From: Craspedostauros australis
Lineage: Eukaryota
Reading direction: 5' to 3'
Length of the DNA stretch: 38,792 nucleotides
Assembly: GCA_030167865.1 (NCBI GenBank)
Contig: JALAGF010004182.1
Coordinates: 1-38,792, forward strand
A model generated the notes under the pieces. That model was not told the DNA's origin. It did not search any database and saw nothing but the letters and a program-made list of their open reading frames with translations. Below are positions 1 to 38,365 of the stretch, in pieces (the first letter of the stretch is position 1; each line of letters starts with the position of its first letter). The translations under genes and the position numbers were made by a program.

Positions 1-73
1 TCACCTTTAGCTCAGTTGGCAGAGCGTGCGACTGTTAATCGCAAGGCCACTGGTTCGATCCCAGTATGGTGAG
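1..73 (+). tRNA. trnN-GTT: tRNA-Asn (anticodon GTT)
   Basis: Full cloverleaf. Acceptor stem TCACCTT(1-7)/ATGGTGA(66-72) has a U6:U67 mismatch. D arm is GCTC...GAGC. Anticodon stem TGCGA/TCGCA encloses loop CTGTTAA (GTT at 34-36). T arm is ACTGG-TTCGATC-CCAGT and the discriminator is G73. No encoded CCA; TTTT follows at 75-78 (Pol III terminator-like). Confidence 0.96.
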
Positions 74-424
74 CTTTTACTCAATATGTTTTGGACAAGT
101 CCCCTTTTGTTCCTCCTTCGACTCCGCCCAATTCAACCAGGGCTCGCAATCAGTGTTTTGCATCCACAAGTGCGCGAAGGTTGCTGTCTCATCCATAGTC
201 GTAGTATCCAGTATGTCATTATGTGCTCATGACACAAACGCACCTTGGAACATGACCCTGACGGTGTACTGTTTTGTTAGTCGTATCGACCCACGTGAGC
301 GTTGGCATCAACAGCAGCAACATCGTACGTGAAGTGATCTGCGCAGCACATGCGAAGGGATCCATGCGACGCATGCGTACGCAGCTCCATTCCACCCTAA
401 CATGCATATTGGCTGCTTCTATCC

Positions 425-6656: not shown

Positions 6657-7303
6657 GGTGTTTAAAGACGATGACAGTAACTTGCTGACTACGACAACCC
6701 TTGAGGAACTTTAGCTTGTTGCTGATTTATGTTTTTCGCCGTCATCCACTGTTGCTGCAGTTTTGGTGGTTGTTGGCTTTCGTGGGATGCCTTTGTTGAT
6801 GGTGGTTGTCGCTGTTGTTGGTTTTCTTGTTGGATGCACATTACCTGTTACTACACAGCACACACGTGACTGAAAATGCGTGACTCGTAGTCACTAGACT
6901 GTATCTAGAGAGTAGAGTGCTGTCGCTCCCGAGAGAGAGAGAATCTCGATTGTGATGTACGTACCGGCATGTATAGTACAGTACATACGACTATGGTACA
7001 CACGCACAATGGAAGGCTGATCGATTTTCACAAAGTCGATTAAATCAATCTGTGGTGGAGTGTGCAGACTAGGAGCAGCCCGAGAAACTGCATTCCGACG
7101 CTGCGTAGCATACACCAGAGAGAGTGAATGACGAATTGAGCAGCACAGCACACGTGCGGTGCATTTGTCCTTGTAGATCATGGTTGATGATGTCGCTGTT
7201 GCTTGGGCGCTTCCTTTCACATTCGCGATCGGGAATCCACATAGGAAAAGTGACAGGGACTCTGCAGAGCTGACGGTGCATCGGCCTCCATCCTATCGTC
7301 TCT

Positions 7304-9334
7304 TTATTCGTCTTCGCCTTCCCCTTCGTCTATATCTTCATTCTCGTCTCTGTCCTCCATGAGGCTATCAAAGAAGCACTGGGGAGCATCCTTGACGAAG
7401 AATCGGTGATCGATGCCATGCGGGATGAGCATGGCCTTGTCTTCATCTTCTTTGGAGACTGATGACTTGACCTCCTCCCATGCTGGCGTGATCAAAGGCA
7501 TGGGCACAGAATCGAGCTTGGCTAGTGCGGATGCCGTGTGCTTGGTGATTGATGCGTCGCTGGCATATCCAGACTGGAGCTGCTGCACCCATGTGTGCTC
7601 CTGCGATGCCGGTGGCAACGGACCACACGGTCCATACAGACGTCGGTTCGTCATCTTCTCCGGCACATTGCGGGTCCAGAATCCAACCAAGACCGTGAGG
7701 CGATGATTGACTTTCTGGTTGGATGATTTGGCTTCAGCCGAGGAAAGCGCCGCGTGCCACTGTTTTAGCAGGTCTGCCGACTTCGTCGATTGATCTTCCT
7801 GCGTTGATTTCTGGGCATCGGCTTTGCCTGGACACGGAAGGACCCCGTGCAGCAAGTTGCCAGGGAACATCATGAATGTGTTGTCGTGCGGCGTTGATTT
7901 CCAGCAGCAGTGCGACGCCTCTTCCGATTGAGGGGGTTGATCGAACACGATCGTCGCACCTGCCTCGCTCTCATCGTTGCCGCCCGTCAGATACAGCACG
8001 GAGGAGATGACGGGATGCGTCACCTTGCCTTCCTTCGCCAGCATGGATTCATCTGTGTCGAAGTGCAGGTTGTGTCCGAGATTAGCCTGGATGGGACGCG
8101 TGTGCGCCCACCATTCAAACCCGCAGATCGTCTCATCCGACTTTGAGGCGGACAGCACTTCTTTCGCGCGCGGTAGCAAGTGCCGTATGATGACATCTTC
8201 CATGAGGTCTGTTGGTTGCTGGCCATCACCGTTGATGTCTCCAAAAAACGAGTAGTACCCTCTGTTGGAGTAATCACTTTCCTTCCAGAATGCGGCGTCG
8301 GGGGCGAAGACCTTGAGCAGATTTTGGTAGACGTCTTTTGGCAAGAACCCGTCCTGTGGTCGGAATGCCAGCGGTTCGAAGAGTGCATGTTGAGACTTGA
8401 CCTGCGTCGGCGTCCCTGCCATTTGCCATACGTTGGGGTGTATGCGATGCGTCAGAGCGAAGTGCTGCAGATGCTGCATGGCCTTGTCGTGATCACCTGC
8501 TGTGGACAAAAGCATCGCCAACATGAACCGTGACGTTGCTTCCACCATGGAATACGAGTAGTATCCTTCATCTTCGCCTTCGTCTTCCTCGTCCTTCAGT
8601 TCTTCCTCTTGCTTGTCCTGCCCACTGTCTTCGTCGTTGTCATCGTTGTCGTCGTTGTCATCGTCGTCATCACCGATGAATTCGACGCCCAACACCTGAT
8701 GCAGGATGAGCAATTCGATCCATTCCTTGACAAGCGCATCGACATCTTCGTCCTCCAGCATCTTCAAGGCCAGAGGACGAAGGCCTTGGGATGCGGACAC
8801 CGCCTTTTCGTACCACTGCCGGATCGCCGCGGGCGACAGATGCTTCGACATGCGCCCGAAGTTGGCGCCCATGGACCATGCCCCCGCGTTGTGCGGATAA
8901 TACTTGAGCGCCATCGACACGTGATGCCAGGGCTGCTTGTTTGTTTCCGCGATGGCATCTTCGCCGCCTTCCAACATCGCTTGATGCTGCAGGTACTCCG
9001 AGATGGCCGCATCTGCCAAATGATAATGCGCGACGCTGATGAGGATCGGGAGCATGGTGATCACGCTCAACGCAGAACCGGCGGATTCGAAGAGATTGCT
9101 GACATGCGGCTGGATGTGATCTGATGTGATCTCCAAGAGCTCCCGCAGTTCGTCGTGATCGCCTTCGTCGTTGTTGCCGCAGGAGTCCAGATAGTTGCGA
9201 TAGTGCTGCCAGGCAGCGCCAGCGAGTTCGTTGGCGTCAGCAGTCTTTTGCTTCTTGCTGGTGCTGTTGTTGCTGCCATCGTTGCCGCCGGCACTGCTGC
9301 TATCAGGATCGCACTTCCTCGATGGCTTTGTCAT
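7304..9334 (-). CDS. Uncharacterised protein with helical N-terminus, acidic linker and C-terminal 2OG-Fe(II) oxygenase-like domain (~676 aa; probable start MTKPSRK)
   Basis: FEWWAH...GHNLHFDTDE (HxD), HPVISSVLYL, GATIVF, FPGNLLHGV (distal His) and RLTVLVGFW (2OG-binding Arg). The ORF is open to 9469; the start was chosen by inspection. Confidence 0.7.
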   Translation of the reverse strand: MTKPSRKCDPDSSSAGGNDGSNNSTSKKQKTADANELAGAAWQHYRNYLDSCGNNDEGDHDELRELLEITSDHIQPHVSNLFESAGSALSVITMLPILISVAHYHLADAAISEYLQHQAMLEGGEDAIAETNKQPWHHVSMALKYYPHNAGAWSMGANFGRMSKHLSPAAIRQWYEKAVSASQGLRPLALKMLEDEDVDALVKEWIELLILHQVLGVEFIGDDDDDNDDNDDNDEDSGQDKQEEELKDEEDEGEDEGYYSYSMVEATSRFMLAMLLSTAGDHDKAMQHLQHFALTHRIHPNVWQMAGTPTQVKSQHALFEPLAFRPQDGFLPKDVYQNLLKVFAPDAAFWKESDYSNRGYYSFFGDINGDGQQPTDLMEDVIIRHLLPRAKEVLSASKSDETICGFEWWAHTRPIQANLGHNLHFDTDESMLAKEGKVTHPVISSVLYLTGGNDESEAGATIVFDQPPQSEEASHCCWKSTPHDNTFMMFPGNLLHGVLPCPGKADAQKSTQEDQSTKSADLLKQWHAALSSAEAKSSNQKVNHRLTVLVGFWTRNVPEKMTNRRLYGPCGPLPPASQEHTWVQQLQSGYASDASITKHTASALAKLDSVPMPLITPAWEEVKSSVSKEDEDKAMLIPHGIDHRFFVKDAPQCFFDSLMEDRDENEDIDEGEGEDE

Positions 9335-10311
9335 GTTGGTTCGGTCAATTGCAATGCGATTCAATTCCGCTTGATGGTGAGATCGTGTGGTCGTGTGGTC
9401 GTCTCGTTGTTGATGTTGGGTGGAGCAGATGCATGTGCGAATGCTTCTGTGTGCTTTGCATACCTCCACCTCTCTCTCTCGAGTCGCAGAGTCTTGCTAT
9501 GTCTTCCCACTTGCCAGTGTAGGTACTTATTCTATGATTGTTGCAGCCCATGCCTCTGTTGGATAGTCGTACGAGTGCCGTGGACTGCGCGATGCTTCAT
9601 CGGTTTGGGAAGCTGCAACGTCAGGTGATCGGTTTGTGTCTTTCTCTTTCTCTGCGGTCGTATCTTTTTGGTTGGTCCTGGTTGGTGGTGATGTTGGCGA
9701 TGATCGTGATGTCATGAATTTGGTATCTTTCTCACTCCGCAGAGAGCCGCGCTCACGCGTGCTGTTGAGATTTGTCGCATGCGGCCTGCCTCGTGCGTGT
9801 GTTTGGAGTCGCGGCTGCTGACGGTTAACGGATTCAACCGATGCGAGTGGGAAGAAAGCGGGCAGGCGCAGAGTTGCGACATTCTTTGCGTTCCCAGTCG
9901 TGTAATTGTTGTGCGGTGAAAACAGCAATGATCTCTTGAGACGGCCAGTAGGACACGAACGGAATTTGAATGTTGGATGGCGCCACAAGAGAGACAACGA
10001 GCGGACCTTTTCGAAAGGACGCCCTTTCGCACGAGCAAACACACGGAGGGAACAGACGCACTCAGCACAGAAGACAGGAAGGCCAACGCGGGCGAGAGCG
10101 ACAGCTCATCCTCCACAAGAGGCGGCTCCAACCCAGCGCATTTTATTGCTCCATCATTGTTGCGACCATCATTGCGACCATCATCGCTGTTGGTGCCATC
10201 ACTATCTGCTCGCTCGTCGGCATTGCGTTGTTGCGGTTGCACTCCGGAGGCGACAAGCAACAGGCAAAGTCTCATTCATCTGAATTGAATGTCCATGCTC
10301 GCAGCTCGTGC

Positions 10312-10382: not shown

Positions 10383-13300
10383 ATGTTTAGGGGAAGGTCC
10401 ACATTCTCGCCCGATCGCCACCGCCGAACCAACGTGAATCCTCCTCCTGCCATCCTCCCAGTCAACCCTGCCAAATCCAGAGGCAGCAGAAGCGCCAGCA
10501 ACGGACCGCACTCATCCGTCACTTCGCTGGACTACGGCCACAAGCAAGGCCACGACGCATCCACATTCAGCACGGCCGAGTCGACATCGGCATCTCTCAG
10601 CACAGCATCTGTTGGAAGGAAGGCGGTCGCTGGCAGCATCGATCCCAAGCAAGGGAGCAGCAGGTCCACTTCGGCATCAGCATCGACAAAAATGATGGCC
10701 GGCAATCCGCAGGCTTATCCATCGTACTATTATCCAAAAACGCATCCGTCGCAGTCGAGACAAAGCCATGATGCTGGTCACAGCCAGCAGCAGCATCACT
10801 CTCAGCAGCATCAAAGTCACGCCAATGGCTCTCAACATCCGCAGCATACACAGCAGATGCTAAGCAATTCGTATCATTCCGCAACGCGAAGGAGCGGAAG
10901 TCAGGAATCGCTTTCTTCTTCCAATCTGGATTCGTCTGACCATCGAACCCAGCGATCATATGGCCGCCCACCGGACCGATTGCGCCCGGTTCACAACTTC
11001 AATGACAGCTTCAACAGCAGCAACGGCGATGCCGACCAAGAGACCCATGATAATCCCGGCACCATGCCGATGCGAGCCCAGTCGGAGCCAGGAGCTGCGA
11101 CCTTCGATCATCAAAGATTCTCGGCCTACGTCAACCGCTTCAACATCCTCGAGGACCGACGCAAGGACCCCCAAAAGGTCACCTCCGTCGAACCAATCGT
11201 TCCGCCCACGCCGTCTACTTTCAAAAGCAGACTGCGTCGGATGAATCAGCGGCAGCTCCCATCGCCTGACTCGCGTCGTGCATCAATGGATCGTCGACAA
11301 TCCCCCAGCCCCGTCACGCGTCAGCCGCTGGATGCGAGCAATCATGGAAGCGAATACTCAAACGCGGATGTCGGTGCGCGGCAGCAGTCGTCTGCAGATC
11401 ATGAGCACACTTACAATCAAGGCGTCCGCGCATCGAGCCAACACGCGGTGGTGATGGCATCCAGTCCGCATCAGCATTCTCAGCACATCCTACCTCACAG
11501 AACTCCGGCAAGATACTCGCCAGTTGTCAAAGCCAGCCCCAATCGATCACGTTCCTTCAGTGGCATGTCAAAGGATGTCCCTGCATCGCCCTACGCGCAA
11601 TCGTATCCATCGCCTTTACCGACTCGATCACCGGCCAGAGCCAAATATCTCAGCGCACAGCAACAACAGCAGCAATTCGACAACGAAGATCAGAGAGGTC
11701 CCACCGTCCAGGATACCCCAACAAAGCAAGATGCACTCATGCGCCTGCACAGCAACATCGAAACCCCGCCTCCTGCTAACGTGCGACGCCTCAAAAACCA
11801 GCTGTGGGATCACGAGGAGATGCTTCAGGTCGCCGTCCCTCCCACTCTCCATTACAACGGTGAGCCGGACACGAAGGACGAGCAGTCCGAAGCTCAGACC
11901 AAGTCCAAAGGGTACTACCCGACAGCAATACCTGAAATGGCGGGAAAGCAAGGCCAGCGAACGTCGCAACCTGTCAGTCCGGGTCGACACACTCACGACG
12001 ACACCGACGAAAGCCAGGGGACAGCACAGCGATTCAAATCCAAATTCTACGAGGCTGCCATCGCGGCCAGGTTGCGTGGGACCTCCGTCGTTGTTCCATC
12101 ACAGGCCACGGATTCTGCGCCACCACCTGACTCGGAACCCATCAGCAACAATGCTGATACGAGTGCGGAACAGTACGTGCAAGAGAACCCTCGCATCGCT
12201 ATTGATCAACAGAAGCATCGCGCTGTCCATCGCGTCGTGGCGAGTACACCTACCGACAGCCCCTATCATCAACCGATCGCCCGGTCTGCATCAGAACGCA
12301 GCAAACCATTCGATGAACGTTCCGAACGAACTTCATCCCCCGTCGAGCTGCAGCAGCATGTGGCTGCCGAGCCGCGGCAAGCGCTGCCTCAGAAAAGGCA
12401 ATCAACCAACAATGCGGACCGTGGCTCCGCCAGATCAACCAGCCGCAGCACCGATGGACCGAAGAAGAGCACTGCCCGTTCTCATTCGCATGAACCACGA
12501 AGCCGCACGCACCAACGCAAAACACCTTACGAAGTGCGTGCTGCCAGAGGCGTATCCGTGGAGCGATCGGCTGCTGGACGTAGTTCGGCGTCCAAGGCGT
12601 ACGAGTACGCCAAGGCAGGCAACTACTCCAGCGAGTATGGCGCGGGCAGCGGCGCATCGACCCGTAAGAAAGGCCAACGATCGCACTCGGCCAGCAGGGC
12701 GAGAAGAGCCAGTTGGGGTGGAAAGAACGAGAACGGTGCCACCGGCACGAATCAAGATGCCGGCGCGAACTTTCACTCGGCTCATCCAACGGGTAACAAG
12801 GTTGCTTCGTTGCTTGCAAGGCTCAATGCCGTGAACAGAGAAGATCCGCAGGCTGCACTTGCTGCGATCGACACCATTCTGCGGGATGAGAGCAAGTCGT
12901 CGTCGGGTGAGCCGAGTCCATCGAAACAGAGGGATACGCAGCAGCAGAAACAAAAATCGCGGTCGCAGCCACTGAAGGATAAAGCCATCGCAATGGGTTT
13001 GCAATCCATACAACAGGTCGACGTGGTTCCGACCAGAATGAAAGGCAAGGGCGACGACGACGACGACGCATCGTCGGGCTCTGGAGATGAGACGACCGTG
13101 TCCTCTCTCACGAACCCGAGCTTCCAAAGCAAACGGAAGTCACGCGAATCCGTCCAAATTGTTGCAGCCAAGGCTGCGGAACACGAGGATGCATTTGGGA
13201 CACCGTTCCACGCGATGGACATGCCCGGAAGATCGGGCAACGTCGCGAATGGAGGCACGGGCAGGAGAAATAGCTTGACCAAGACGTCTGGACCATCCAC

Positions 13301-15092
13301 GGCCTCCTTCCGCAAACCACGCCCATCGTCCTTGAAGAACTACTCGTCGGCTCAGGTCTCCGCGATGACATCGACGGAAACAAACAGGCTCGCTGCATCG
13401 TGCTATGGTGGTGACAATCGGCGCAAGTCCAAATCTGCGCACTCGCAATTCTCGCAGGCCGACATTCTGATGTCGAAGGGGAAGCAAAAACAAGAAAAGC
13501 AGCAGCAACAACAGCATGATGGGCAGGATGCCGCACAGCTGGCTCCGGTACCATTTGCGAAAGCGGACTCATTCAATAATGACAATTCGATCCTCGCCAA
13601 TTCTGAGGCGTCACCAACGCCGCCACCTCAACCACTTCGGAGCACGGCAAACGAGGCCCGCAAGAGTTCGAACCCCTTCGATGGTGACAGCGTGGATGCT
13701 GATCGTAATATTTCACAGACGAACAAGGGACCTATCAAGCAAGACAAGCTAGATGACTTCATGAAGGATTCGGATGCGCTCGCCAAGCAGATTCAGGTGT
13801 GGGACGAGATGAGTTCCACCATGTCAGCAGATCGCTCATTTCTGGACCATCCTGCCGCGAAAGCGCGAGATTCGTCCCAATCGCCATCGACCAGGAAACC
13901 CAATGGTAGCAAGCCCAACTCAGCACCACAGATGTCCACGCCAGAGAAGACCATGATGTGGCCAAGCCCGCAAGGGAATAGGAAATCGTTGACGCCAGGA
14001 GATGCCGGCGCGAGACCGCCCAAGCCTCCACCGTCGTCAACAACGTCATCTAATCGCCGGCAGCATCCATGGGACGATTCCGTTCCTCCGCATCGTCAGC
14101 AGCCGGTGGATCTCAAGGACACATCCATGGATGAGGGTCACGGCATGGAGGCTGCGTTGGCAGGATTGACAGCATCGTACGATGCGCAGAAGGCGTCCAA
14201 CAAGCCCTTTCCCAGATCCTCGTCTTTGCCATCGTCACGGCATCAGTCGAGATCGCCATCCTCGAGAGATTCCGCACGAGAGAGCGATTCTTCGCCGATG
14301 AGGACGTCGGTCGATACTGAGATGGATTTCACCTCGGCATCGTCGTCATCACCCATGGAACATGGGTGGGACGTGACACCCGGAATCACGCCGCAGCAGC
14401 AGGAGAAGCAAAGAGGTCTTGCGGATTCATTTGATGCCCAGTGGGTGTCGCATGCCAAGCTCCCAACGTTCCTTGAGTCAAACTCCCAGCCAAAGCAGCG
14501 GAATTTCACGGAAGAGAACGTGCTCCAACCGCAGTACATAGATCGTACGCGAGAGGAGATGAGCAAGCGGAAGGCACCGAATTCACCGCCGCAATTTATC
14601 CCTTACGATCTCGCCTCCTCGAGCGCAAGCAACTCTGATGGTGTCGAGATCTCTTTGGCCACTCCACAACAGCCGATGGTCATCCCACTGCAGCAGCCGA
14701 AGTCACAGACAAAGCCACTGGCAAAGAGCAAAATCAACGGCCGGATGCAGCGAAGACAGGAGAAGGAATCTCCCAAGCCACAAAAGGAGCAGACCAAACG
14801 CAGAGGCTTCCTCCGTGCATTCATGCGCAAGGACAAGAAGAAGGATTCGAGCAAGCAGCAGCAGCAACAACGCTTCACTTCCGAACCAAACACCGGGCGG
14901 GAACCTCTCAATCCTCCACAAACCTTCGTCAGCGCCAAGTCCCCCACGAACTTTGACGCGAAGGAGATGGAACCTCCTCGGCGTGGGCGCAACAACAGAC
15001 GATCATCAAGCGGGCGATCTCGGTCGCATTCGCTGGAAAGATTCCGTTCCGCGAAGATCGGCAGAGTTCTGCGAATGTACGGGAACGACTAG
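10383..15092 (+). CDS. Large Ser/Gln/Pro/Arg-rich, mostly disordered hypothetical protein, 1569 aa
   Basis: 4.7-kb uninterrupted ORF with low-complexity composition and a few short amphipathic segments; no recognisable domain. Confidence 0.8.
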   Translation: MFRGRSTFSPDRHRRTNVNPPPAILPVNPAKSRGSRSASNGPHSSVTSLDYGHKQGHDASTFSTAESTSASLSTASVGRKAVAGSIDPKQGSSRSTSASASTKMMAGNPQAYPSYYYPKTHPSQSRQSHDAGHSQQQHHSQQHQSHANGSQHPQHTQQMLSNSYHSATRRSGSQESLSSSNLDSSDHRTQRSYGRPPDRLRPVHNFNDSFNSSNGDADQETHDNPGTMPMRAQSEPGAATFDHQRFSAYVNRFNILEDRRKDPQKVTSVEPIVPPTPSTFKSRLRRMNQRQLPSPDSRRASMDRRQSPSPVTRQPLDASNHGSEYSNADVGARQQSSADHEHTYNQGVRASSQHAVVMASSPHQHSQHILPHRTPARYSPVVKASPNRSRSFSGMSKDVPASPYAQSYPSPLPTRSPARAKYLSAQQQQQQFDNEDQRGPTVQDTPTKQDALMRLHSNIETPPPANVRRLKNQLWDHEEMLQVAVPPTLHYNGEPDTKDEQSEAQTKSKGYYPTAIPEMAGKQGQRTSQPVSPGRHTHDDTDESQGTAQRFKSKFYEAAIAARLRGTSVVVPSQATDSAPPPDSEPISNNADTSAEQYVQENPRIAIDQQKHRAVHRVVASTPTDSPYHQPIARSASERSKPFDERSERTSSPVELQQHVAAEPRQALPQKRQSTNNADRGSARSTSRSTDGPKKSTARSHSHEPRSRTHQRKTPYEVRAARGVSVERSAAGRSSASKAYEYAKAGNYSSEYGAGSGASTRKKGQRSHSASRARRASWGGKNENGATGTNQDAGANFHSAHPTGNKVASLLARLNAVNREDPQAALAAIDTILRDESKSSSGEPSPSKQRDTQQQKQKSRSQPLKDKAIAMGLQSIQQVDVVPTRMKGKGDDDDDASSGSGDETTVSSLTNPSFQSKRKSRESVQIVAAKAAEHEDAFGTPFHAMDMPGRSGNVANGGTGRRNSLTKTSGPSTASFRKPRPSSLKNYSSAQVSAMTSTETNRLAASCYGGDNRRKSKSAHSQFSQADILMSKGKQKQEKQQQQQHDGQDAAQLAPVPFAKADSFNNDNSILANSEASPTPPPQPLRSTANEARKSSNPFDGDSVDADRNISQTNKGPIKQDKLDDFMKDSDALAKQIQVWDEMSSTMSADRSFLDHPAAKARDSSQSPSTRKPNGSKPNSAPQMSTPEKTMMWPSPQGNRKSLTPGDAGARPPKPPPSSTTSSNRRQHPWDDSVPPHRQQPVDLKDTSMDEGHGMEAALAGLTASYDAQKASNKPFPRSSSLPSSRHQSRSPSSRDSARESDSSPMRTSVDTEMDFTSASSSSPMEHGWDVTPGITPQQQEKQRGLADSFDAQWVSHAKLPTFLESNSQPKQRNFTEENVLQPQYIDRTREEMSKRKAPNSPPQFIPYDLASSSASNSDGVEISLATPQQPMVIPLQQPKSQTKPLAKSKINGRMQRRQEKESPKPQKEQTKRRGFLRAFMRKDKKKDSSKQQQQQRFTSEPNTGREPLNPPQTFVSAKSPTNFDAKEMEPPRRGRNNRRSSSGRSRSHSLERFRSAKIGRVLRMYGND

Positions 15093-25409: not shown

Positions 25410-26714
25410 ATGGTGAAACGTAGCTCTGCGGATGCAGCCAAGATGGTGGTCTTCGCATCAGCATTGCTGATGTGCCTGTCATCGGTATTCGGTTTGCGCC
25501 CTGTGGGACTTCCCCGATCAACCGCACCGCTGACACCGCCATCGGCAAGCGCGGCGCATTTGATGCCGCATGCTACGAGTGGAATGGCCAACCGCATTTC
25601 GCATGCGTGGGCGCGGCCACAGCGACGAGGAGGGCATGGTCAACAGAACATACAGCTGTGGCAGTCATCAGCAGCCGCCAACATCGACGAGCAAAACGAT
25701 GATTCCACCAGCTCCGCCGCAGCTTCTGCTGCTACCGAGGTCATCACCAAGAGCACGAGCAAGCCACCGTTGCCGCTCGTGTTGTGGAGATTCACGCGGC
25801 CGCATACCATCATTGGCTCGGCGCTCGCCATACCGGCCCTGCACGTCCTGGCAGCACCCACCTTCCGGGACGCGTTCCGGGTCAAAACGGGCATATCCAT
25901 CCTGTTCGCCCTGGTCCCGTCCTTGCTCATGAATCTGTACATCACTGGATTGAATCAGCTCTACGACGTGGAGATCGACAAGATCAACAAGCCCGATTTG
26001 CCGTTGGCGTGCGGGGACCTGTCCATGCGCGGCGGCATCATCGCGGTCACCGTCTCGCTGATCGTCTCCTTGGCGATGGGCGCGTCGAATTCCGTGCTCG
26101 GTTCGCAGGGACTCAACATGGCCCTCTGGTTTTCCGCCATCCTGGGCACCATGTACTCCGCCCCGCCGTTCCGTCTGAAGCGCTTTCCGCTGCTGGCCGC
26201 CTTCTGCATCGTGGCCGTGCGCGGCGCCGTCATCAACGCCGGCTTCTTCGCTCATGCCACGCTGGCGGCGTACGGCTCATCAACGTCGGTGCTGCACTGC
26301 CTCACGACGGACGCGCGCTGCATCCTGTCCAGCCTCTACTTCGCCGTCTTCGGCGTCGTCATCGCGCTGATGAAGGACGTGCCGGATGCCAAGGGCGATC
26401 GAATGTTCAACGTGCGGACCTTCTCGGTGCGCCTGGGTCAGAAGCGGGTGTACAAGATGATGCATCGGCTGCTGTCGACCCTGTTTGCCGGCGTCGGAGC
26501 GAGCTTCCTGGGTGGCGCGGCGCTTCCTGGCGTGTCGTCCACCCTGCGCGTGTGCCGCAGCATCGTGGGCGCGTCATCCATCGCGGCGTCCGTGTCGGTG
26601 CAGAAGGAGGCCGCACCGGTGGATGCCGAAAACCCGAAGGAGGTCTACGGATTCTACATGCATCTCTGGAAGCTCTTCTTCCTTTCCTACATCGTTCTTC
26701 CGTTGGCGAGGTGA
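25410..26714 (+). CDS. HPT: Homogentisate prenyltransferase (UbiA family; phytyltransferase VTE2/HPT-like), probably plastid-targeted, 434 aa
   Basis: FTRPHTIIGS, NQLYDVEIDKINKPDLPL, RLKRFPLLAAFCIVAVRG, KDVPDAKGD and YMHLWKLF, with an N-terminal signal plus transit-like region. HPT versus HST is judged by eye. Confidence 0.85.
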   Translation: MVKRSSADAAKMVVFASALLMCLSSVFGLRPVGLPRSTAPLTPPSASAAHLMPHATSGMANRISHAWARPQRRGGHGQQNIQLWQSSAAANIDEQNDDSTSSAAASAATEVITKSTSKPPLPLVLWRFTRPHTIIGSALAIPALHVLAAPTFRDAFRVKTGISILFALVPSLLMNLYITGLNQLYDVEIDKINKPDLPLACGDLSMRGGIIAVTVSLIVSLAMGASNSVLGSQGLNMALWFSAILGTMYSAPPFRLKRFPLLAAFCIVAVRGAVINAGFFAHATLAAYGSSTSVLHCLTTDARCILSSLYFAVFGVVIALMKDVPDAKGDRMFNVRTFSVRLGQKRVYKMMHRLLSTLFAGVGASFLGGAALPGVSSTLRVCRSIVGASSIAASVSVQKEAAPVDAENPKEVYGFYMHLWKLFFLSYIVLPLAR

Positions 26715-31138: not shown

Positions 31139-31799
31139 TGTATTGTCTTGTCTTGTATTGTATTGTGTGTTCGTCTCTTTGCTTGCTTGTGTCGGAGGTT
31201 CCTTCTCTGTTGGTTGATGCGCCTGGATCAATGCAACGAGCAGTCGTATGATGAAGTGTGTGTTGGAATGTGTTCGCGGAGAGTGCAATTATGGTGTCGC
31301 TGCGAAACCTGGCCCCAAATCGAGTCATGACTCTCTCCGTCCACCGTCGTCTTTGGGTTTTCCCCATTTCGCCATCTCCTCATCGTGGTGGTTCCGTGGA
31401 GATTTCGCTTCGTTTCGTTGCGATGTGCGCGTTGTCGTTTTTCGCCCCAGCCAAAAGAAGTCCATCGAATCATGCGGACCGAAGCCCGTCTGACCGTATG
31501 CACGCTTGCAGGACTGCGGACAATGACGACAAAATTGTGAGGAGACGCACTTCTTGCGCCCTTTTCAAATTCATTCGCCTTCATCTCATTGCATGTGTGT
31601 GTCATTGCGATCCTCTTTGCGTGATCATTGCGCATCACCATCGTTGCCTCCGTCATCATCATTGCCGACATCACCAACATCGCCACCAGCACGACTGCCA
31701 CAATTGCAATACAAACGCAAGCACAAACAAAAACAGAGCAACCACAACAGAACAGCATCAAAAGGACAACAGCGGGGAGTTTGTGTGCGCTCCATCATC

Positions 31800-33593
31800 A
31801 TGTTGGAATCACTGACGATCTTCGACAAGGGTGGCCTCATACTGTACCAACACGTGGGAGATTCGCCATCGACCATATCTTCTTCTACTTCTTCTTCTCA
31901 ATCTGCAGCCAATAATGGCGACAACAGCGAGGAACAGAAACGGCAGCAGCAAGCCGACATCGTGGATCGTTGGATGGAGGAGGTGTACTTCAATCCCACG
32001 CGATCACAGACCGAACGATACTCGACGATCAAGATCGGAAACGCCAAGATAGTCGTGGAGTGGGAAGAGTCTGCGGACTTTCTCTGCGTGGCCATCTATC
32101 CAGACATCACAGCCTTTCCCTGGATTCGACCGCTGCTGCAGGCGACCGTTGCGGAGTACCAGATCTTTGCGCATTCTCAGCTGCGGAATGATGGCGAGGA
32201 CGGCGAGAATAAGAACGATCTCAACGCCCATCTCTTCCTCGCCATGACGACGTCGCAACACCATGGGAAGCTGTTTGACAAGACCTTCCAGGTTCTGCTG
32301 CGAACGCACAAGGCCAGCGGCAAAGGATCCAATCCTCTTGGGCCGTCGTCGTCTCGTGCAAACAATGGCAGCAATGCAAAGCAGACCGGAAAATCCGCGA
32401 GGGTGGTCCCAAAACCGGGCAAGGGCGGCAAGGAAAAGCGTCATTGGCACGATGGCAAGGCCAAGGTCACCAAGGAGGCGATGGCGTCGCTGGACTTCAG
32501 CAATCCCGCGGAGAGCACGGAAGATGCCCAACAGCAGGCCGAGGACCGTGCGCTGTCCGAGGCCAGGGCCGCCTACCTGCCGACCGACGCGGATCTCGAT
32601 GACTTCAACGCCCAGGTTTCGATCGATGACAATGCAGATGAGGATTCCGATCAGGGCTGGGGAAGCTCTCTGTCCTCCCTCTTCCAGCAGATGACGGGGC
32701 AGAAGGTCCTTGCCGCCCAGGACCTCGAGGCGCCCCTCAAGGAGATGCACAAGCTCCTCACGAGCAAGAACGTCGCCGCCGACATCGCGCAGCAAATTTG
32801 CACCAAGGTGGAAGCGCAGTTGGTGGGCAAGAAGCTCAACAGCATGTACCGCGTCAAGACGGCCGTGCGACAGGCCCTGGAGAGCGTCATCAACAAACTC
32901 CTGGCACCATCTGCGGAGCTCGACGTCGTGCGACGCGTCGTCTCCAAGCGCGACGCCATCTTCGGAAACAAGCGCCCCTACGTCATCTGCGTCGTGGGCA
33001 TCAACGGCGTTGGCAAATCGACATCGCTGGCCAAGATCGCTTACCATCTCAAGACGCACGGCGGTTGCAATCCCTTGCTGGCTGCTTGCGATACCTTCCG
33101 CAGCGGCGCCGTCGAACAGCTCGGCATGCACGCCAAGTGCCTCGATGTTCCCATCTTCTCCAAGGGATACAGCAAGGACCCGTCCAACGTCGCCAAGGCG
33201 GCCATCGAGCAGGCCATTCAAGACAAGAACGATGTCGTGCTGGTCGATACGGCGGGACGCATGCAGAACAACGTGCCCCTCATGAAGGCGCTGGGCAAGT
33301 TGGTCATGGAGAACAAGCCAGATCTCACGGTCTTCGTCGGAGAAGCGCTGGTGGGGAATGACGGTGTGGATCAGGTGCGCATGTTCAACCAGGCGGTCAG
33401 CACGTACGGTCGCAATCACAAGATCGATGCCATCCTCCTCACCAAGTTCGACACCGTCTCGGATAAGGTCGGCGCGGCGCTGTCCATGACCCACGTCACG
33501 AACGCGCCCATCCTCTTTGTCGGAACAGGACAAAAGTACCATCATCTGCAAAAGCTGTCGACGCAATCTGTCATTCAATCGTTATTCAGATAA
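31800..33593 (+). CDS. SRPRA: Signal recognition particle receptor alpha subunit, 597 aa
   Basis: N-terminal MLESLTIFDKGGLILY (SRX longin domain), GINGVGKSTSLAKI, ACDTFRSGAVEQL, DTAGRMQNN, GEALVGNDG, TKFDT and FVGTGQKY. Confidence 0.95.
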   Translation: MLESLTIFDKGGLILYQHVGDSPSTISSSTSSSQSAANNGDNSEEQKRQQQADIVDRWMEEVYFNPTRSQTERYSTIKIGNAKIVVEWEESADFLCVAIYPDITAFPWIRPLLQATVAEYQIFAHSQLRNDGEDGENKNDLNAHLFLAMTTSQHHGKLFDKTFQVLLRTHKASGKGSNPLGPSSSRANNGSNAKQTGKSARVVPKPGKGGKEKRHWHDGKAKVTKEAMASLDFSNPAESTEDAQQQAEDRALSEARAAYLPTDADLDDFNAQVSIDDNADEDSDQGWGSSLSSLFQQMTGQKVLAAQDLEAPLKEMHKLLTSKNVAADIAQQICTKVEAQLVGKKLNSMYRVKTAVRQALESVINKLLAPSAELDVVRRVVSKRDAIFGNKRPYVICVVGINGVGKSTSLAKIAYHLKTHGGCNPLLAACDTFRSGAVEQLGMHAKCLDVPIFSKGYSKDPSNVAKAAIEQAIQDKNDVVLVDTAGRMQNNVPLMKALGKLVMENKPDLTVFVGEALVGNDGVDQVRMFNQAVSTYGRNHKIDAILLTKFDTVSDKVGAALSMTHVTNAPILFVGTGQKYHHLQKLSTQSVIQSLFR

Positions 33594-33610
33594 ATCACAC
33601 CTATTTCTTT

Positions 33611-34771
33611 TTACACACCAAACAAGAATTCAAACGGCGTCGACAATGCTTCCAGCTGCACGTCCTCCTTGGCGACCGGGAATTTCGTGTGCATCCGAAT
33701 CGATTTCGGTTCCTGTTTCTTTGCGAAGATTGTGCCGGACGACGCAGCCATCTGCTGCTGTATCCGATACGGCCGCAACGCCGATTCTGACGGCTGAACA
33801 TGCGCAAAGTAAATGCGCGCCTGCACCATGTGAACAAAATCCTTGCTTTGCATGCGACTTCCGCCACCCGAATACTGCATACCACAGGCCCGGCTGCAGG
33901 CATCGCCGTAGTTGGAGATCGACGCCACGCGTTGTCTCGTTGCGCTGGATAGGATTTCCAATCGACTGATCTCGTACAATTCCAGATCGGTCGACGACAC
34001 GATTTCGACATCGTCCAGATACTGCAGCGCCAATACATCCTGCAACAATTCCAATTGAATGGTGCGTGAATCCCATAACGACGAGGGCGTCAACGCGACG
34101 ATATCGAACGTGCTGTCGTCGGATGACAGCGATGATGATGATGATACGAGCCCCATGTACTGCGGCACCTGTTTGGCACCAAAGATGGTCTTGGTGTTGT
34201 GATGCTGTTGCGCCACGAACTGCAGCCACGACGGCAGTCCAGTGGCGGATCCCCACAGTGCTTGCATCTGCGTCGCTGTGAACGGATGCTGCTGCGACAG
34301 CTGATGCAACGGGAACTTGGCGAAATGATGCAAGGTGCATTGCATCATGGCGTTCATGGTATCGAACGAATGCTTCCGGGATGATACAGAGCCACGCGGC
34401 TTTTGCAACGCTGGATACATCGCGCGCAACTTGGGATCGAGTTGATTGCCAATGGCGCAGACCAACGCCTTGAGTTTGGCATCGGCAAGGCGCTGTTCCT
34501 TTTGCAATGCCGCGATCTCGGTCTGCAGCTGTCGCATCTGCGCAACGATCGCGGCCTTGTCTGCGATAGGGGGCTTGTCCTTGCCCGGTCGCAGACTGAC
34601 CTGCAGCTGACGCACTAGCTTGCCCTTGTGATTGACATCAGTCGTCAAGCGGCGGAACACTTCATCAGCTTGCAGGAATTGATCCACGCTGCCCGCATCG
34701 AGTCCTCTCTCCACCTGCCATTGCTTCACGATGTCGGGAGATGTGCGGATGATCTTCAGGTCGATCGGCAT
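33611..34771 (-). CDS. Seryl-tRNA synthetase-like protein with degenerate catalytic core (probable pseudoenzyme), 386 aa
   Basis: SerRS-type N-terminal coiled-coil arm MPIDLKIIRTSPDIVKQWQVERG...VDQFLQAD..FRR...AIGNQLDP. Core remnants VPQYMGLVS, VASISNYGD..SR, KDFVHMVQA and ALRPY. The motif-2 FRxE and motif-3 Arg are not visible. Confidence 0.75.
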   Translation of the reverse strand: MPIDLKIIRTSPDIVKQWQVERGLDAGSVDQFLQADEVFRRLTTDVNHKGKLVRQLQVSLRPGKDKPPIADKAAIVAQMRQLQTEIAALQKEQRLADAKLKALVCAIGNQLDPKLRAMYPALQKPRGSVSSRKHSFDTMNAMMQCTLHHFAKFPLHQLSQQHPFTATQMQALWGSATGLPSWLQFVAQQHHNTKTIFGAKQVPQYMGLVSSSSSLSSDDSTFDIVALTPSSLWDSRTIQLELLQDVLALQYLDDVEIVSSTDLELYEISRLEILSSATRQRVASISNYGDACSRACGMQYSGGGSRMQSKDFVHMVQARIYFAHVQPSESALRPYRIQQQMAASSGTIFAKKQEPKSIRMHTKFPVAKEDVQLEALSTPFEFLFGV

Positions 34772-35032
34772 GGTGGTGTGAAGCTATTCCTCGGCATGTG
34801 ACGCAATGGTTGCCATGCAGTCTTGTTCGATGCTTCCTCTCCTCTTGGTGGAAGCCTGCGGAGAGAGGCAAAGAGGGAGGTGATGGTCTTGTTCTGGCGG
34901 ACGCGAAATCGGTTGGAGTTCACATCAAGCGTTTGAGACAAGATTGGATCAGCGATACACGATGGAAATACGTTATTGGTTTGAGGAGGAAATCGACGAA
35001 TCGAGTTTAGCATTGCAGTACCTCGCAGAGAC

Positions 35033-35293: not shown

Positions 35294-38200
35294 ATGCGCT
35301 CCCACGCTCCCCCCACCACGACACTCATGGCAACGATGACGATGATGGTCATCATGGTGATGACGATGATGGTGATGGAAGTCAGATCCGTGGCGGCATT
35401 CATTGCTCCATGTCCTTGGCTACCGCGCCTGTCGTCAATGCCATTGCGCTCTCTTCTCTCCCAACAACAATTGCGACGTGGGTCCAGCTCTTGTCTTCAT
35501 GCGAACGACAACAACAACCTGGAAGCAGAACAACCAGCCGCTGGCGAGCCCACATTGGCAGAAGCGCCGACGGATCCAGCCCAGTACGCAGACCTCTTCA
35601 ACAATGATGACTTCTGGGACGCGAATTTGGACGAGGAAGATGTCAAGGAGATGCTGGACAAGCACTTCAAGATATCTGCTCCAAAAGATGGCTTCTGGAC
35701 AAGCGTGATTCTTTCCTGGGAAGCCATCATCCGTACCGCAAAAAGAGAAAGCAGCAATGAAGGCGCGTTGGAGAGTACAGCATCTGTCATCCAACGTCTA
35801 ATTCCCAACGATGTCACAGCCATATGGATCATGGGCGAAAAGCAAGACCCGAAGCACAGAGAGAAAGTCTTGGTTGCCGTCAAAAGATCGCTGGTGGTTG
35901 CCAGTAAAGATAGACCAACAACCCTCCGTGATTCGATCTTGATGATATTGGGAATCGTCCATGACTCCCAGAAGAAGAAGCCATTCGGCATGCTCCGCGT
36001 AGGCGAAGACGAATCAACATTCTTCTTTGGTGAAGCCCACTTTCGACACAAAGGCAACTTCGAACAGCAACCAACAACGGTGTTTCTGAAGCCGCTGAAG
36101 CTTGGCGCGAACCGCGACAGGGTGGCGATGTTCCACACCGAAAGTGGAAGTGGCAAGACCGTCGAGCTGGCTGCGAGCGCTCATCTGAGAGATGCTGTGA
36201 TCAGCATCGTGGAGATCATCGATGTAGACATACGCACGAAAGAAGCAGGCGATCAGCGGTACAATGAGGCCTATGAAAGCTTGAAGAGCTGTTTGAAACG
36301 TGACGTGAAGTCGAAGCCCATCGCCTTCCAAACCATCATCAAAGAAATGAATGCTTGGGCGGAACCAACTGCAGATGGGGCTGAGGGAGACCCCGGCTCC
36401 ATCCGAATCGTGTACTGTCTCGACGAAGCAGCCGGATGCCCAAACCTCGTGCGGGAAATCATCCGAAATTACAGTCGACTCGGTGATGAGATGGGGAAGT
36501 ACATTGCGAACGGATGTGATGGCACAACTGAGACTACCAGCCGAGATATTCAAGTTGTGTTTTCTGTTGCAGGCACAGGAACACATGGAAACACCGTCAG
36601 AAGCTTGGGTGCAAACTACCGAAGTCTTGAGCCAAGTGGCCGAAAGGTTGACAAAGAAGTCTACGAAGCACTCGTTTCGGAGTATGACAAGGGCGATGCC
36701 AGATACCAGAAAATTCCATCACAGGAAGACCTGGTGAAATCCACAGCCCTTCTTGGGATCGTTGGAACGCACAACGCAAGGATGGCATCCATCTTGATCG
36801 ATCAGCTCTTCCATTCGCCATTCTCGTACACCCATCCACACGAAGGGGCCAAGCTCATGTCGTTGGTCTTCCAGAAGTTCATCGCGTGTAATGCAATGGA
36901 ATCGCTGTGGAATGACGACCCCGCAAACACTGATGCAGAACTGGCTTGCACAAAGACGCGCATGTTGGAATCGGGACAGTCACTTGCCACTTTTCTCTTT
37001 CCGCAACCCTTCACACTACCATCCAAGGATGACGAAGCGGCAGAAAAGGTACGAACACTCAACTACGGCATCAGATTCGATGACGACGAAGATCCCGGCA
37101 CCAACTTCGATGATGGCGAGCCAACATCGATGTACTACCTTATGCGGAGATACGGATTGGTAGCTCCCAACGATTTTCGTCATAGCAGCAGCAAGGATCG
37201 CACTCTGGATCAGCCGTTCGAAGTGAGTGAGGCAATGCAACTACTCTGCATCTGGCTCATGCATGGCGGCACGCGATTGGCAGACGGCGAAGCGCTGTTG
37301 GGAACAGCTCCGCACGCTTTCGAGGTGCTGTCGACTCAGCTCGTCAGTTGTGCTATTTCAGCAGCCATGACGGTGGCATTGGAAGAACGTCCAGACGCTC
37401 ACCACATCTTGAAGAAGGCTCTCGGGATGTTCCTGAGAGAAGGCACTGTCGACGGTGAAGGTGAGCGTGGGACTCCACATGTGGATCCGGAGATCGAGGA
37501 AGCGTGGGCAGCACTTGAGGATGTGATCCCTGTGTCGGTAGACTACGATCTTGCATTCAACGGCATGTACTACCACAAATCTGAAATGAAGCTGAGGGAA
37601 GAGAAGGAGAAAGATACAATGTCAGAGTCAGAGTCAGAGCCAGAGCAAATCAACACGGTTTGGCGGAACATACCGACGATGGAAGTCGACCGAGACAAGG
37701 ATTTGGATCTGCCGAACTTGAAAGACAGGCGAGATTTCAACGCTGCAGAGGTGGTGTCAGGCAACACGGAAACGACTCTCGTCATGGACCGGGATCTGTT
37801 GGAAGGACTGATGCAAATGAAAGGTAAGAACACTGCAGCACGACGTTTCAGCCCAGCTCTTACGTGCGTGACAGAAGGCAGGTGCAACTTGGCAGATGGG
37901 ATCGTCGCTTTCATTGGTGCGAAACGCAACGAAAAGGGCGAGCTGGTTGACCATGCGCTCTACACCATCTTCATCCAATCCGAGGATCTTTTTGGAGATT
38001 CCGACATCGACACCGCAGGTATTCGCGACAAGAAGAACAGGGTCGATCAGGAGGTGCTGGATATTCCGTTTGGGAATACCCGACTGTACTGTGTGGCCAG
38101 TCGATCGGAGGCGTTGTCGACGAAAATGCTGGAGATCAGTGAAACCGACGAAGTCAAAGACAGCATCCAAAACAAACAATCGAAGAAGAACAAGAACATG

Positions 38201-38365
38201 AAGAAGAACACGAAGAAGAACACGAGAGTTCCGTTTGTTTCGTATCCGACTGATGAAGGCATGATGCTGCCAAATGTGATGTTGGCCCTTGATCCACTTC
38301 GCAATCACCAGAAGTTGGATGACAACGCAGTTATGTTGAAATTCTCCAACAGCAAAGATGAGTGA
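35294..38365 (+). CDS. Intronless P-loop NTPase with putative C-terminal restriction-endonuclease-like domain (Crinkler/RHS-like) and putative plastid presequence, 1023 aa
   Basis: Walker A TESGSGKT (~36137-36160), Walker B IVYCLDEA (~36407-36430), then SVAGTG and HNARMA. The C-terminal LADGIVAF...IFIQSE resembles a PD-(D/E)xK core. A hydrophobic N-terminal stretch ends VAA-FIAP. Confidence 0.6.
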   Translation: MRSHAPPTTTLMATMTMMVIMVMTMMVMEVRSVAAFIAPCPWLPRLSSMPLRSLLSQQQLRRGSSSCLHANDNNNLEAEQPAAGEPTLAEAPTDPAQYADLFNNDDFWDANLDEEDVKEMLDKHFKISAPKDGFWTSVILSWEAIIRTAKRESSNEGALESTASVIQRLIPNDVTAIWIMGEKQDPKHREKVLVAVKRSLVVASKDRPTTLRDSILMILGIVHDSQKKKPFGMLRVGEDESTFFFGEAHFRHKGNFEQQPTTVFLKPLKLGANRDRVAMFHTESGSGKTVELAASAHLRDAVISIVEIIDVDIRTKEAGDQRYNEAYESLKSCLKRDVKSKPIAFQTIIKEMNAWAEPTADGAEGDPGSIRIVYCLDEAAGCPNLVREIIRNYSRLGDEMGKYIANGCDGTTETTSRDIQVVFSVAGTGTHGNTVRSLGANYRSLEPSGRKVDKEVYEALVSEYDKGDARYQKIPSQEDLVKSTALLGIVGTHNARMASILIDQLFHSPFSYTHPHEGAKLMSLVFQKFIACNAMESLWNDDPANTDAELACTKTRMLESGQSLATFLFPQPFTLPSKDDEAAEKVRTLNYGIRFDDDEDPGTNFDDGEPTSMYYLMRRYGLVAPNDFRHSSSKDRTLDQPFEVSEAMQLLCIWLMHGGTRLADGEALLGTAPHAFEVLSTQLVSCAISAAMTVALEERPDAHHILKKALGMFLREGTVDGEGERGTPHVDPEIEEAWAALEDVIPVSVDYDLAFNGMYYHKSEMKLREEKEKDTMSESESEPEQINTVWRNIPTMEVDRDKDLDLPNLKDRRDFNAAEVVSGNTETTLVMDRDLLEGLMQMKGKNTAARRFSPALTCVTEGRCNLADGIVAFIGAKRNEKGELVDHALYTIFIQSEDLFGDSDIDTAGIRDKKNRVDQEVLDIPFGNTRLYCVASRSEALSTKMLEISETDEVKDSIQNKQSKKNKNMKKNTKKNTRVPFVSYPTDEGMMLPNVMLALDPLRNHQKLDDNAVMLKFSNSKDE

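Follow-up and report, generated by a model that had tools for sequence, protein, structure and literature searches.

A conserved protein family derived from seryl-tRNA synthetase that has very probably lost catalysis

Here we describe a gene for what is very probably a conserved, noncatalytic paralogue of seryl-tRNA synthetase (SerRS), located on contig JALAGF010004182.1 of the Craspedostauros australis assembly GCA_030167865.1. The whole stretch of DNA that was analyzed, 38,792 nucleotides (nt) in length, is referred to as the window. The open reading frame (ORF) occupies positions 33611..34771 of the minus strand, runs uninterrupted from ATG to TAA (stop codon at 33611-33613), and forms a complete coding sequence (CDS) for 386 amino acids (aa). 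The identical 386-aa protein is recorded in JGI/IMG and in mmetsp, where the contig is 1297 nt long. A transcript-sized contig of 1251 nt from run X1 (33582..34832, minus strand) covers the gene with 0 other letters and 0 gaps; beyond the CDS it reaches some 61 nt upstream and some 29 nt downstream, and it shows no intron; the convergent neighboring gene sits on a separate X1 contig ending at 33570. That run X1 is RNA is a guess from the software, and no run with the gene is recorded as RNA. Because the RNA nature of run X1 is not recorded, expression of the window gene is likely rather than demonstrated.

The window has a G+C content of about 55%, and long spurious ORFs are frequent in it; one of 524 aa runs antisense to the neighboring gene for a signal recognition particle (SRP) receptor α-like GTPase, and a 236-aa ORF is present in another frame of the SerRS-like stretch itself. 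Since the window holds a 524-aa antisense ORF, ORF length is weak evidence, and the argument is built instead on homology, conservation, and the transcript-sized contig. The frequency of spurious ORFs in such GC-rich DNA could be taken to favor a chance ORF or a recent pseudogene. Against this stand significant Pfam and fold matches, some 40 orthologues with conserved N and C termini, ratios of nonsynonymous to synonymous substitution rates (dN/dS) of 0.31 to 0.38, and the exact transcript-sized contig, and we regard this extremely improbable explanation as refuted for practical purposes. A hidden exon restoring the lost motifs was also considered and rejected: the 1251-nt contig is gap-free over the gene, the termini of the orthologues are conserved, and only 17 bp separate the stop codon from that of the neighboring gene.

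SerRS ancestry and layout of the protein

The window protein is derived from SerRS across its whole length and has a reduced class II core. A sequence-only reading of the window had described an intact 386-aa ORF colinear with SerRS; both the ORF and a match to the SerRS fold over the whole length were found, and the strings which that reading quoted (IGN, P..Y.G.S, S.SN..D..SR, FVHM, and LRPY) are all present in the translation. The SerRS homology on which it depended was recovered by Pfam, by an HMMER profile, and by hhalign. Pfam recognizes the arm as Seryl_tRNA_N at residues 3 to 109 (E value of 1.7e-12; 48 bits, with a cut-off of 28.2). The query gave no Pfam match to tRNA-synt_2b even at an E value of ≤10, nor is this domain among the nine Pfam families listed for the 35 family members scanned at an E value of ≤0.01. 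With phmmer, matches among PDB sequences were to SerRS arms only (best, 6r1n; E value of 7e-4), and a sub-threshold stretch aligned query residues 274 to 319 with residues 351 to 396 of Arabidopsis SerRS. The family profile matched PDB SerRS entries over the arm (E value of 3.5e-12) and, over a C-terminal stretch, human SerRS (E value of 0.016).

When the 39-sequence family alignment, here called A2, was compared with 81 proteobacterial SerRS sequences by hhalign, the global probability was 95.3 (E value of 6.3e-9) and the local probability was 85.0 (E value of 6.3e-6); with E. coli SerRS alone the probability was 0.8, and the comparison is informative only with the 81-sequence alignment. Five anchors had high column confidence, namely, the arm, KSIWGAKQLPxY (opposite tLYGTGQLPKF of SerRS), VSNxGDAASRA (SCSNxxDFQARR), KEYVH [LVH(TLN)], and P..L.P (vPevLrPYM). 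Modeling with AlphaFold2 (AF2) and A2 gave a predicted local distance difference test score (pLDDT) of 84.0 and a predicted template modeling (TM) score of 0.80, while a single-sequence model was confident in the arm only (pLDDT of 43.8 overall). A Foldseek search of the PDB with the AF2 model returned SerRS matches with an E value of 7.7e-16 and TM scores of 0.62 to 0.65. VIA-align superposed 326 residues of the model on human SerRS chain 8p7b_B with a Z score of 25.9 and a root mean square deviation of 4.6 Å; the top 45 entries in this ranking were all SerRS, and the next fold was prolyl-tRNA synthetase (ProRS), with a Z score of 14.8. A search of the ESM Atlas with the protein yielded no usable match, and a homodimer prediction (two copies, A2) scored 0.19 against a mark of 0.42, which is no evidence either way.

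All features of the protein lie on the minus strand and are described here from the N terminus. The helical arm (residues 1 to 112; 34436..34771) ends with IGN at residues 107 to 109 and is supported by Pfam, the AF2 model, and the matches to SerRS arms in the PDB. Its helices span residues 27 to 59 and 69 to 105, carry a conserved LRP at the tip, and are modeled with pLDDT values of 95 to 98, which together with the 48-bit Pfam score upholds the earlier proposal that the tRNA-binding arm has been kept. Of 41 family sequences, 36 have M[PTS][IV][DS] as their first residues, level with residue 1 of SerRS, and the remaining five are fragments or read-throughs. Because there is no N-terminal extension or presequence, a cytosolic or nuclear location is the simplest assumption, and judging from these termini the family protein probably acts in the cytosol.

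The arm is followed by a remnant of the motif-1 region (residues 113 to 193; 34193..34435), with a helix at residues 136 to 149 and a strand at residues 155 to 157, as delineated by AF2 secondary structure, alignment A1, and a motif count; equating these residues with motif 1 is a reading of a low-confidence part of the hhalign alignment. Most relatives carry a His..WGC..CxxC insert in this region, whereas the window copy reads LWGS and lacks the CxxC. At least 19 of 41 members (the search pattern missed some rows) show H..WGC ... C..C in the segment that separates the motif-1 region from the LP.W block; the insert, at columns of about 430 to 500 of A1, is not present at window residues 165 to 178 (nt ~34238 to 34279). 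With its one His and three Cys residues, the insert looks like a zinc knuckle.

Residues 194 to 205, KTIFGAKQVPQY (34157..34192), are the counterpart of the SerRS tLYGTGQLPKF block; the hhalign columns are of high confidence here, and G198 and P203 are invariant in the family. The sequence VPQYMGLVS (residues 202 to 210) leads into the run SSSSSLSSDDS (residues 210 to 220; 34112..34144), which forms a variable surface loop between strands 204 to 210 and 221 to 228 (pLDDT of 63 for residues 211 to 220). hhalign sets this run opposite a variable segment of E. coli SerRS, HTRPLEEEADTSN, and relatives have long low-complexity inserts at the same site (A1 columns 595 to 665). The Ser/Asp run had been noticed from the sequence, at ~34120 to 34150, and had been taken to occupy the place of motif 2. 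It is indeed present, but it is not a stand-in for motif 2; it is a loop just upstream of the deletion.

The next segment, TFDIVALTPSSLWDSRTIQ... (residues 221 to 247; 34031..34111), is conserved and contiguous in 41/41 sequences; it contains T228 and the family-invariant residues D234, R236, and Q239, and its hhalign mapping onto SerRS is of low confidence. The C-terminal half of the class II sheet has been kept in residues 263 to 321 (33809..33985), as supported by the phmmer match to Arabidopsis SerRS, the profile match to the PDB, and high-confidence hhalign columns. This part holds L..YE.SRLE, SISNYGDACSRA (SCSN..DFQARR in SerRS), and KDFVHMVQA (LVHTLNGS in SerRS), with SISNYGDACSR at residues 284 to 294 and FVHM at residues 312 to 315. 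LRPY (residues 332 to 335; 33767..33778) is the hhalign counterpart of vPevLrPYM, and the AF2 model has no helix after strand 314 to 321.

The protein ends in a family-specific tail (residues 363 to 386; 33614..33685) that reads KFP ... EALSTPFEFLF, has no SerRS counterpart, and is modeled with low confidence (pLDDT of 55 to 67). The tail is conserved in 38 sequences, with P379 and F382 nearly invariant, and in nearly all of these the motif KFP(P)... E(A/K)L(S)CP[FY].FL[FL] lies at, or no more than 4 residues from, the C terminus. It may be a partner-docking peptide.

Loss of the catalytic elements

Two intervals of the core are short. The QLPxY and SxSN anchors are 79 aa apart in the query and 139 aa apart in E. 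coli SerRS, and VH and L.P are separated by 18 and 37 aa, respectively, in agreement with the shortened core reported from the sequence. In SerRS, the interval from QLPxY to SxSN comprises the TxE strand, a helix, the two motif-2 strands, a following helix, and two more strands. The AF2 model of the same interval consists of strands 204 to 210 and 221 to 228, helix 232 to 247, and strands 254 to 257 and 269 to 274, that is, one helix and two strands fewer. Because the 18-residue block [LFIY].[ILV].A.TA....D[AS]R..[QR] is ungapped in all 41 sequences, a motif-2 hairpin would not fit between its Thr and the following helix. The fRxE ... R.HQF hairpin with the ATP-binding Arg was thus not found, as the sequence-only reading had stated; the residue-level mapping around motif 2 is of low confidence, and the assignment rests partly on counting secondary-structure elements.

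That reading had also reported the serine-binding TxE loop and the motif-3 Arg as missing. If LVA.TA corresponds to LIPTAE of SerRS, as in the low-confidence hhalign alignment, the Glu position of TxE is occupied by G, S, P, or A, and Glu is found in 0 of 41 sequences. In the same alignment, the Thr is kept in most members and in the query may be T228; the loss therefore applies to the Glu, whereas the Thr may have been retained. At the motif-3 Arg position (VH+10, by HMMER alignment to Arabidopsis SerRS), Arg or Lys occurs in 1 of 40 sequences, which confirms the absence of this residue. The query further lacks the motif-3 helix, as seen from the 18-aa spacing and from the AF2 model, which has no helix there. 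As judged from these features, the elements for seryl-adenylate formation have been lost, and the window protein should be catalytically dead.

Several polar residues, D234, R236, Q239, E267, S286, D290, and R294, are invariant on the remaining sheet, which suggests that a conserved surface of some use persists on the remnant. One explanation would be that the protein is still an enzyme and uses the cluster of D234, R236, Q239, E267, and S286 for another chemistry. There is some precedent, as the amino acid:carrier-protein ligases, which are SerRS homologues, are reported to have evolved a new acceptor chemistry (PMC9437257). However, the class II ATP-binding elements, namely the motif-2 hairpin and the motif-3 Arg, are missing, and the window copy lacks the motif-3 helix as well, which makes continued catalysis very unlikely.

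A different use of an inactive core is known from SLIMP, an insect SerRS paralogue that has kept the coiled coil and lost the active site and yet, paired with the arm-less SerRS2alpha in a heterodimer, is required for charging (PMC10570016). By analogy, the window protein could form a heterodimer with a canonical SerRS, in which it would be the inactive subunit bearing the arm; catalysis would then fall to the partner, and tRNA binding or regulation to the window protein. The helix in the motif-1 region, which is the dimer interface in SerRS, is predicted to be kept (pLDDT of 73 to 89) and would be consistent with this. On the other hand, the lack of a presequence makes an organellar partner unlikely, and no arm-less SerRS is known here; the accessible text of a survey of diatom aminoacyl-tRNA synthetases (aaRSs) lists only serRS1 (cytosol) and serRS2 (plastid/mitochondrion) and is silent on arms (PMC4494062). 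The core is also far more reduced than that of SLIMP, in which the catalytic domain is described as conserved in its overall structure (PMC10570016). We therefore consider a heterodimer of this kind unlikely.

Conservation of the family and its genomic setting

An exhaustive HMMER scan of 1.84 billion representatives returned 53 matches at an E value of ≤1e-3. About 33 of these are full-length relatives of 330 to 974 aa, and the remaining matches are short fragments covering the arm region only (query residues ~1 to 119). Eight more loci (L001 to L008) came from a pattern scan of metagenome contigs. A single-sequence protein search gave one relative, and a search with alignment A1 gave 4 matches among proteins of near-equal length and none among proteins of 1706 to 4870 aa; a single-protein metagenome scan found no relatives. 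The records come from environmental and microbial-eukaryote data and are annotated as hypothetical protein. In the literature searched, which did not extend to subscription journals and supplements, no paper describing the family was found.

Each of 39 sequences is 22 to 35% identical to the query, and 12 columns are invariant among them. The shared blocks comprise an N-terminal MPIDLKWVR..P..V.EWQ; LASPVD at the end of the arm; LP.W...L...P.KSIWGAKQLP.Y; L.LVA.TA.S..DAR.IQ..L..EL; L..HE.SRIE; LG.VSN.GDAASRAC...FAGGG; KEYVH.V.ASVV; and a C-terminal KFP...EAL(S)CPF.FLF. Among the parts that Pfam can recognize, the arm, found in 22 of 35 members, is conserved best, and many members have long low-complexity inserts at its tip in alignment A1. 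The sequence-only reading had called the protein lineage-specific. The family is distinct, but it comprises about 40 diverged sequences and is not restricted to one species, and the sole hint of a diatom source in these data is the label mmetsp.

The family is under purifying selection. By the Nei-Gojobori method, dN/dS was 0.38 for L004/L008 (dS of 0.23), 0.38 for L005/L007 (dS of 0.50), 0.33 for L002/L004 (dS of 0.63), and 0.31 for L002/L008 (dS of 0.64). Across all 15 pairs of metagenome orthologues the ratio ranged from 0.10 to 0.38, the pairs with higher dS being near saturation. These pairs consist of metagenome orthologues, and none includes the window copy or a close relative of it. 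Ratios of 0.31 to 0.38 are not near 1, and together with the ~33 full-length relatives, the 8 loci, and the exact contig, they support the view, already put forward from the sequence, that the protein is a pseudoenzyme rather than the product of a decaying pseudogene.

Convergent to the SerRS-like gene lies the gene for the SRP receptor α-like GTPase (31593..33593, plus strand; Pfam SRP54 and SRP54_N), the stop codons of the two genes being 17 bp apart. The same tail-to-tail pairing is found at 4 of the 8 metagenome loci (L002, L004, L006, and L008); L003, L005, and L007 break off too shortly after the stop codon to judge, and L001 has other neighbors. At the paired loci, the SerRS-like proteins are only ~25 to 30% identical to the query, and the SRP receptor α-like proteins are 75 to 89% identical over GTPase-domain/C-terminal segments, with a value of 45% for the N-terminal part in L008. 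A gene for a UbiA-family prenyltransferase is located at 25410-26714 (plus strand) of the window, ~7 kb from the SerRS-like gene, and L001 encodes a UbiA-family prenyltransferase with 62% identity at 6918-8438 (minus strand), ~5 kb from its SerRS-like gene and in the same relative orientation. The presence of UbiA-family genes near the SerRS-like gene in both points to a wider synteny between the window and L001.

The divergent upstream neighbor (35294-38365, plus strand) is a 1023-aa ORF without a Pfam match, and no counterpart of it was found at any of the 8 related metagenome loci. Two further long ORFs, of 1569 aa (10383-15092, plus strand) and 676 aa (7304-9334, minus strand), have no Pfam match at an E value of ≤1e-4, and a tRNA-Asn (GTT) gene at positions 1-74 (plus strand) starts at the first base of the window. 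In L006, the family gene is split into two ORFs, 7627-8118 and 8131-9519 (both on the plus strand), which encode a 163-aa N-terminal part and then 462 aa whose start falls inside the motif-1 region. An intron or a frameshift is suggested for that species, in contrast to the window copy, which has no intron.

Possible role in tRNA methylation and comparison with known systems

One family member, P0038 (974 aa, from a single ENA contig), has C-terminal S-adenosylmethionine (SAM)-dependent methyltransferase domains. All SerRS-like family blocks are present in this protein, the family tail motif is absent, and the methyltransferase module stands in its place. The last 305 residues match residues 42 to 270 of human METTL6 (E value of 4.8e-34), including WD.FY, FFKDRH, and the GCGVGN SAM loop. 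A homology of the family tail EAL.CPFDFLF with the WDLFYK helix of METTL6, suggested by EALPWDTFY of P0038 in alignment A1, was considered and rejected as unsupported: a hidden Markov model of the 38 tails misses the P0038 site, its best domain scoring −4.2 bits elsewhere.

For the methylation of C32 in tRNA-Ser, human METTL6 requires SerRS, which serves as the substrate-selection factor, and the tRNA has its long variable arm clamped between the SerRS arm and METTL6 in a tRNA-dependent complex (PMC11479938). The same source reports that METTL6 was fused to the C terminus of SerRS to stabilize the complex for cryo-electron microscopy; the domain order of P0038, SerRS-like and then METTL6-like, is that of this engineered fusion (PMC11479938). 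Yeast Trm140 is likewise reported to need SerRS for tRNA-Ser (PMC5311504), and for tRNA-Arg, METTL2 is described as using DALRD3, which has an anticodon-binding domain of the aaRS type (PMC7237682). Of the four roles suggested from the sequence, namely, a tRNA/RNA-binding factor, a heterodimer partner of true SerRS, a helper in the selenocysteine (Sec) pathway, and a tRNA-modification helper, only the last gained specific support, from the METTL6-type fusion in P0038.

In light of the P0038 fusion and of the role of SerRS as the tRNA-Ser selection factor of METTL6 and Trm140, we tentatively propose that the window protein is a dedicated noncatalytic tRNA-Ser adaptor for the formation of 3-methylcytidine at position 32 (m3C32). 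It would grip tRNAs with a long variable arm, that is, tRNA-Ser, through the retained arm, and would act as the substrate-selection subunit of an m3C32 tRNA methyltransferase of the METTL2/6/8 (Trm140) type. tRNA-Ser would thereby be presented to the methyltransferase, as it is by SerRS to METTL6 and Trm140, and in a manner similar to that in which DALRD3, derived from arginyl-tRNA synthetase (ArgRS), serves METTL2. The KFP...CPFDFLF tail could, speculatively, be the docking peptide for the methyltransferase partner. It is conceivable, if somewhat doubtful, that in an algal lineage a moonlighting job of SerRS, the choice of tRNA-Ser for m3C32, was passed to a paralogue that shed the aminoacylation machinery and became fused to the methyltransferase in at least one species.

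Several points weigh against an adaptor role in methylation. The link to a methyltransferase comes from 1 fused protein among the 35 members that were scanned, and P0038, being known from one ENA contig, may be a misassembly or a gene-call artefact. No methyltransferase gene was found in the window or beside the family gene in L001, L006, and L008. METTL6 is the sole member of its enzyme family among the PDB matches, and for this reason the match cannot decide whether the P0038 domain is of the tRNA-Ser type. At positions corresponding to K43, K50, and R51 of human METTL6, P0038 has Leu, Gln, and Thr, respectively, while D46 is kept; R51 contacts SerRS and is reported to be exclusive to tRNA-Ser enzymes (PMC11479938). 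The K12/G13 loop of human SerRS, which touches METTL6, falls in a short segment that seems to have been lost from the family, as judged by alignment offsets (query residue 10 aligns with Arabidopsis residue 13 and query residue 11 with human residue 15, but query residue 3 aligns with S. aureus residue 2). The second contact loop (M416/M417 in PDB 8p7b), located before the VH strand, is replaced by GGG and variable inserts. On this evidence, the contacts would have to differ from those in the human SerRS-METTL6 complex. Moreover, tRNA binding by the family is deduced from the retained arm only, and the window copy is the most reduced member, without the zinc knuckle-like insert and without the motif-3 helix.

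The retained arm would equally suit a tRNA-binding factor that works without a methyltransferase. Such a factor might act on tRNA-Ser or tRNA-Sec as a chaperone or in export or sequestration, or it might assist the Ser-to-Sec pathway. The SerRS arm is described as the main recognition element for tRNA-Ser (PMC10570016), the SerRS-tRNASec complexes 4rqe and 4rqf are among the fold matches, and the polar cluster of D234, R236, Q239, E267, S286, D290, and R294 suggests that a binding surface has been kept. Yet no tie of the family to Sec genes or to a transport factor turned up in the analyses made, and the only domain fusion seen is to a methyltransferase; such a factor appears improbable.

The family-specific C-terminal motif and the knuckle-like His/Cys insert in at least 19 of 41 members could instead suggest an RNA-independent scaffold or regulator, in which the SerRS fold would have been reused for contacts with proteins or with a small ligand. 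The low-complexity inserts at the arm tip of many members could disturb contact with tRNA, and SerRS is reported to have roles independent of aminoacylation (PMC11479938). Nevertheless, the arm is the best-conserved part recognizable by Pfam (22/35) and is modeled as a full-length coiled coil, and the one fusion partner is a tRNA enzyme, which leaves this explanation decidedly unlikely.

Dead aaRS paralogues reveal which parts of ancient enzymes work alone, and among them SLIMP is, to our knowledge, so far the sole well-studied SerRS case. In the family described here, probably a second, independent, and cytosolic one, the arm and half of the sheet, with motif 2 deleted and a new tail added, would be sufficient for a selected function. 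If the link to a methyltransferase is true, the separate and presumably nonessential gene would provide a directly testable system for the choice of tRNA-Ser in m3C32 formation, a question difficult to approach when the essential SerRS is itself the cofactor. The adaptor role would then represent a clean natural case of subfunctionalization, in which the reading of tRNA identity was separated from charging, and would give DALRD3 a counterpart derived from SerRS. In any case, naming the family improves the annotation of genomes that now list a hypothetical protein.

Like the canonical class IIa SerRSs, such as human SARS1 (PDB 8p7b/3vbb) and the Arabidopsis enzyme (6gir), the family has the N-terminal antiparallel coiled-coil arm, the GxxQLPx[FY] block, SxSN..D..(A)R, the K..VH strand, and the C-terminal P..L.P. 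It differs from them in lacking ~60 residues between QLPxY and SxSN, the motif-2 hairpin, the TxE Glu, and the motif-3 Arg; the window copy also lacks the motif-3 helix and adds a tail of roughly 50 residues ending in PFEFLF. The amino acid:carrier-protein ligases show the opposite pattern, as they lack the tRNA-binding arm and keep the active site. These bacterial proteins are nevertheless similar in being truncated SerRS relatives with a new role (PMC9437257).

As regards SerRS as the cofactor of METTL6 and Trm140, P0038 is a natural polypeptide of the SerRS-like-then-METTL6-like type, and the elements that SerRS is reported to use (PMC11479938), namely the arm and the part of the sheet that precedes the VH strand, are ones that the family keeps. 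However, the known cofactor is the active, essential SerRS, whereas here it would be a separate, dead paralogue, and the contact residues are not conserved: the K12/G13 segment is lost, and METTL6 R51 is Thr in P0038. DALRD3 is similar by function only, being a noncatalytic protein that carries a tRNA-binding domain derived from an aaRS and confers tRNA specificity on an m3C methyltransferase, METTL2 (PMC7237682, PMC11479938); its domain is a class I DALR anticodon-binding domain, serves tRNA-Arg, and is not homologous to the SerRS-like family.

The closest known case is SLIMP of insects and other invertebrates, which is also described as a SerRS paralogue that kept the arm, lost the catalytic pocket, and was retained by selection (PMC10570016). 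In the same account, SLIMP arose from the mitochondrial SerRS2 at the root of the bilaterians, is mitochondrial, and kept the overall class II core, whereas the family described here has no presequence and a physically shortened core. Because this family comes from environmental and microbial-eukaryote data, its origin is most likely independent of that of SLIMP.

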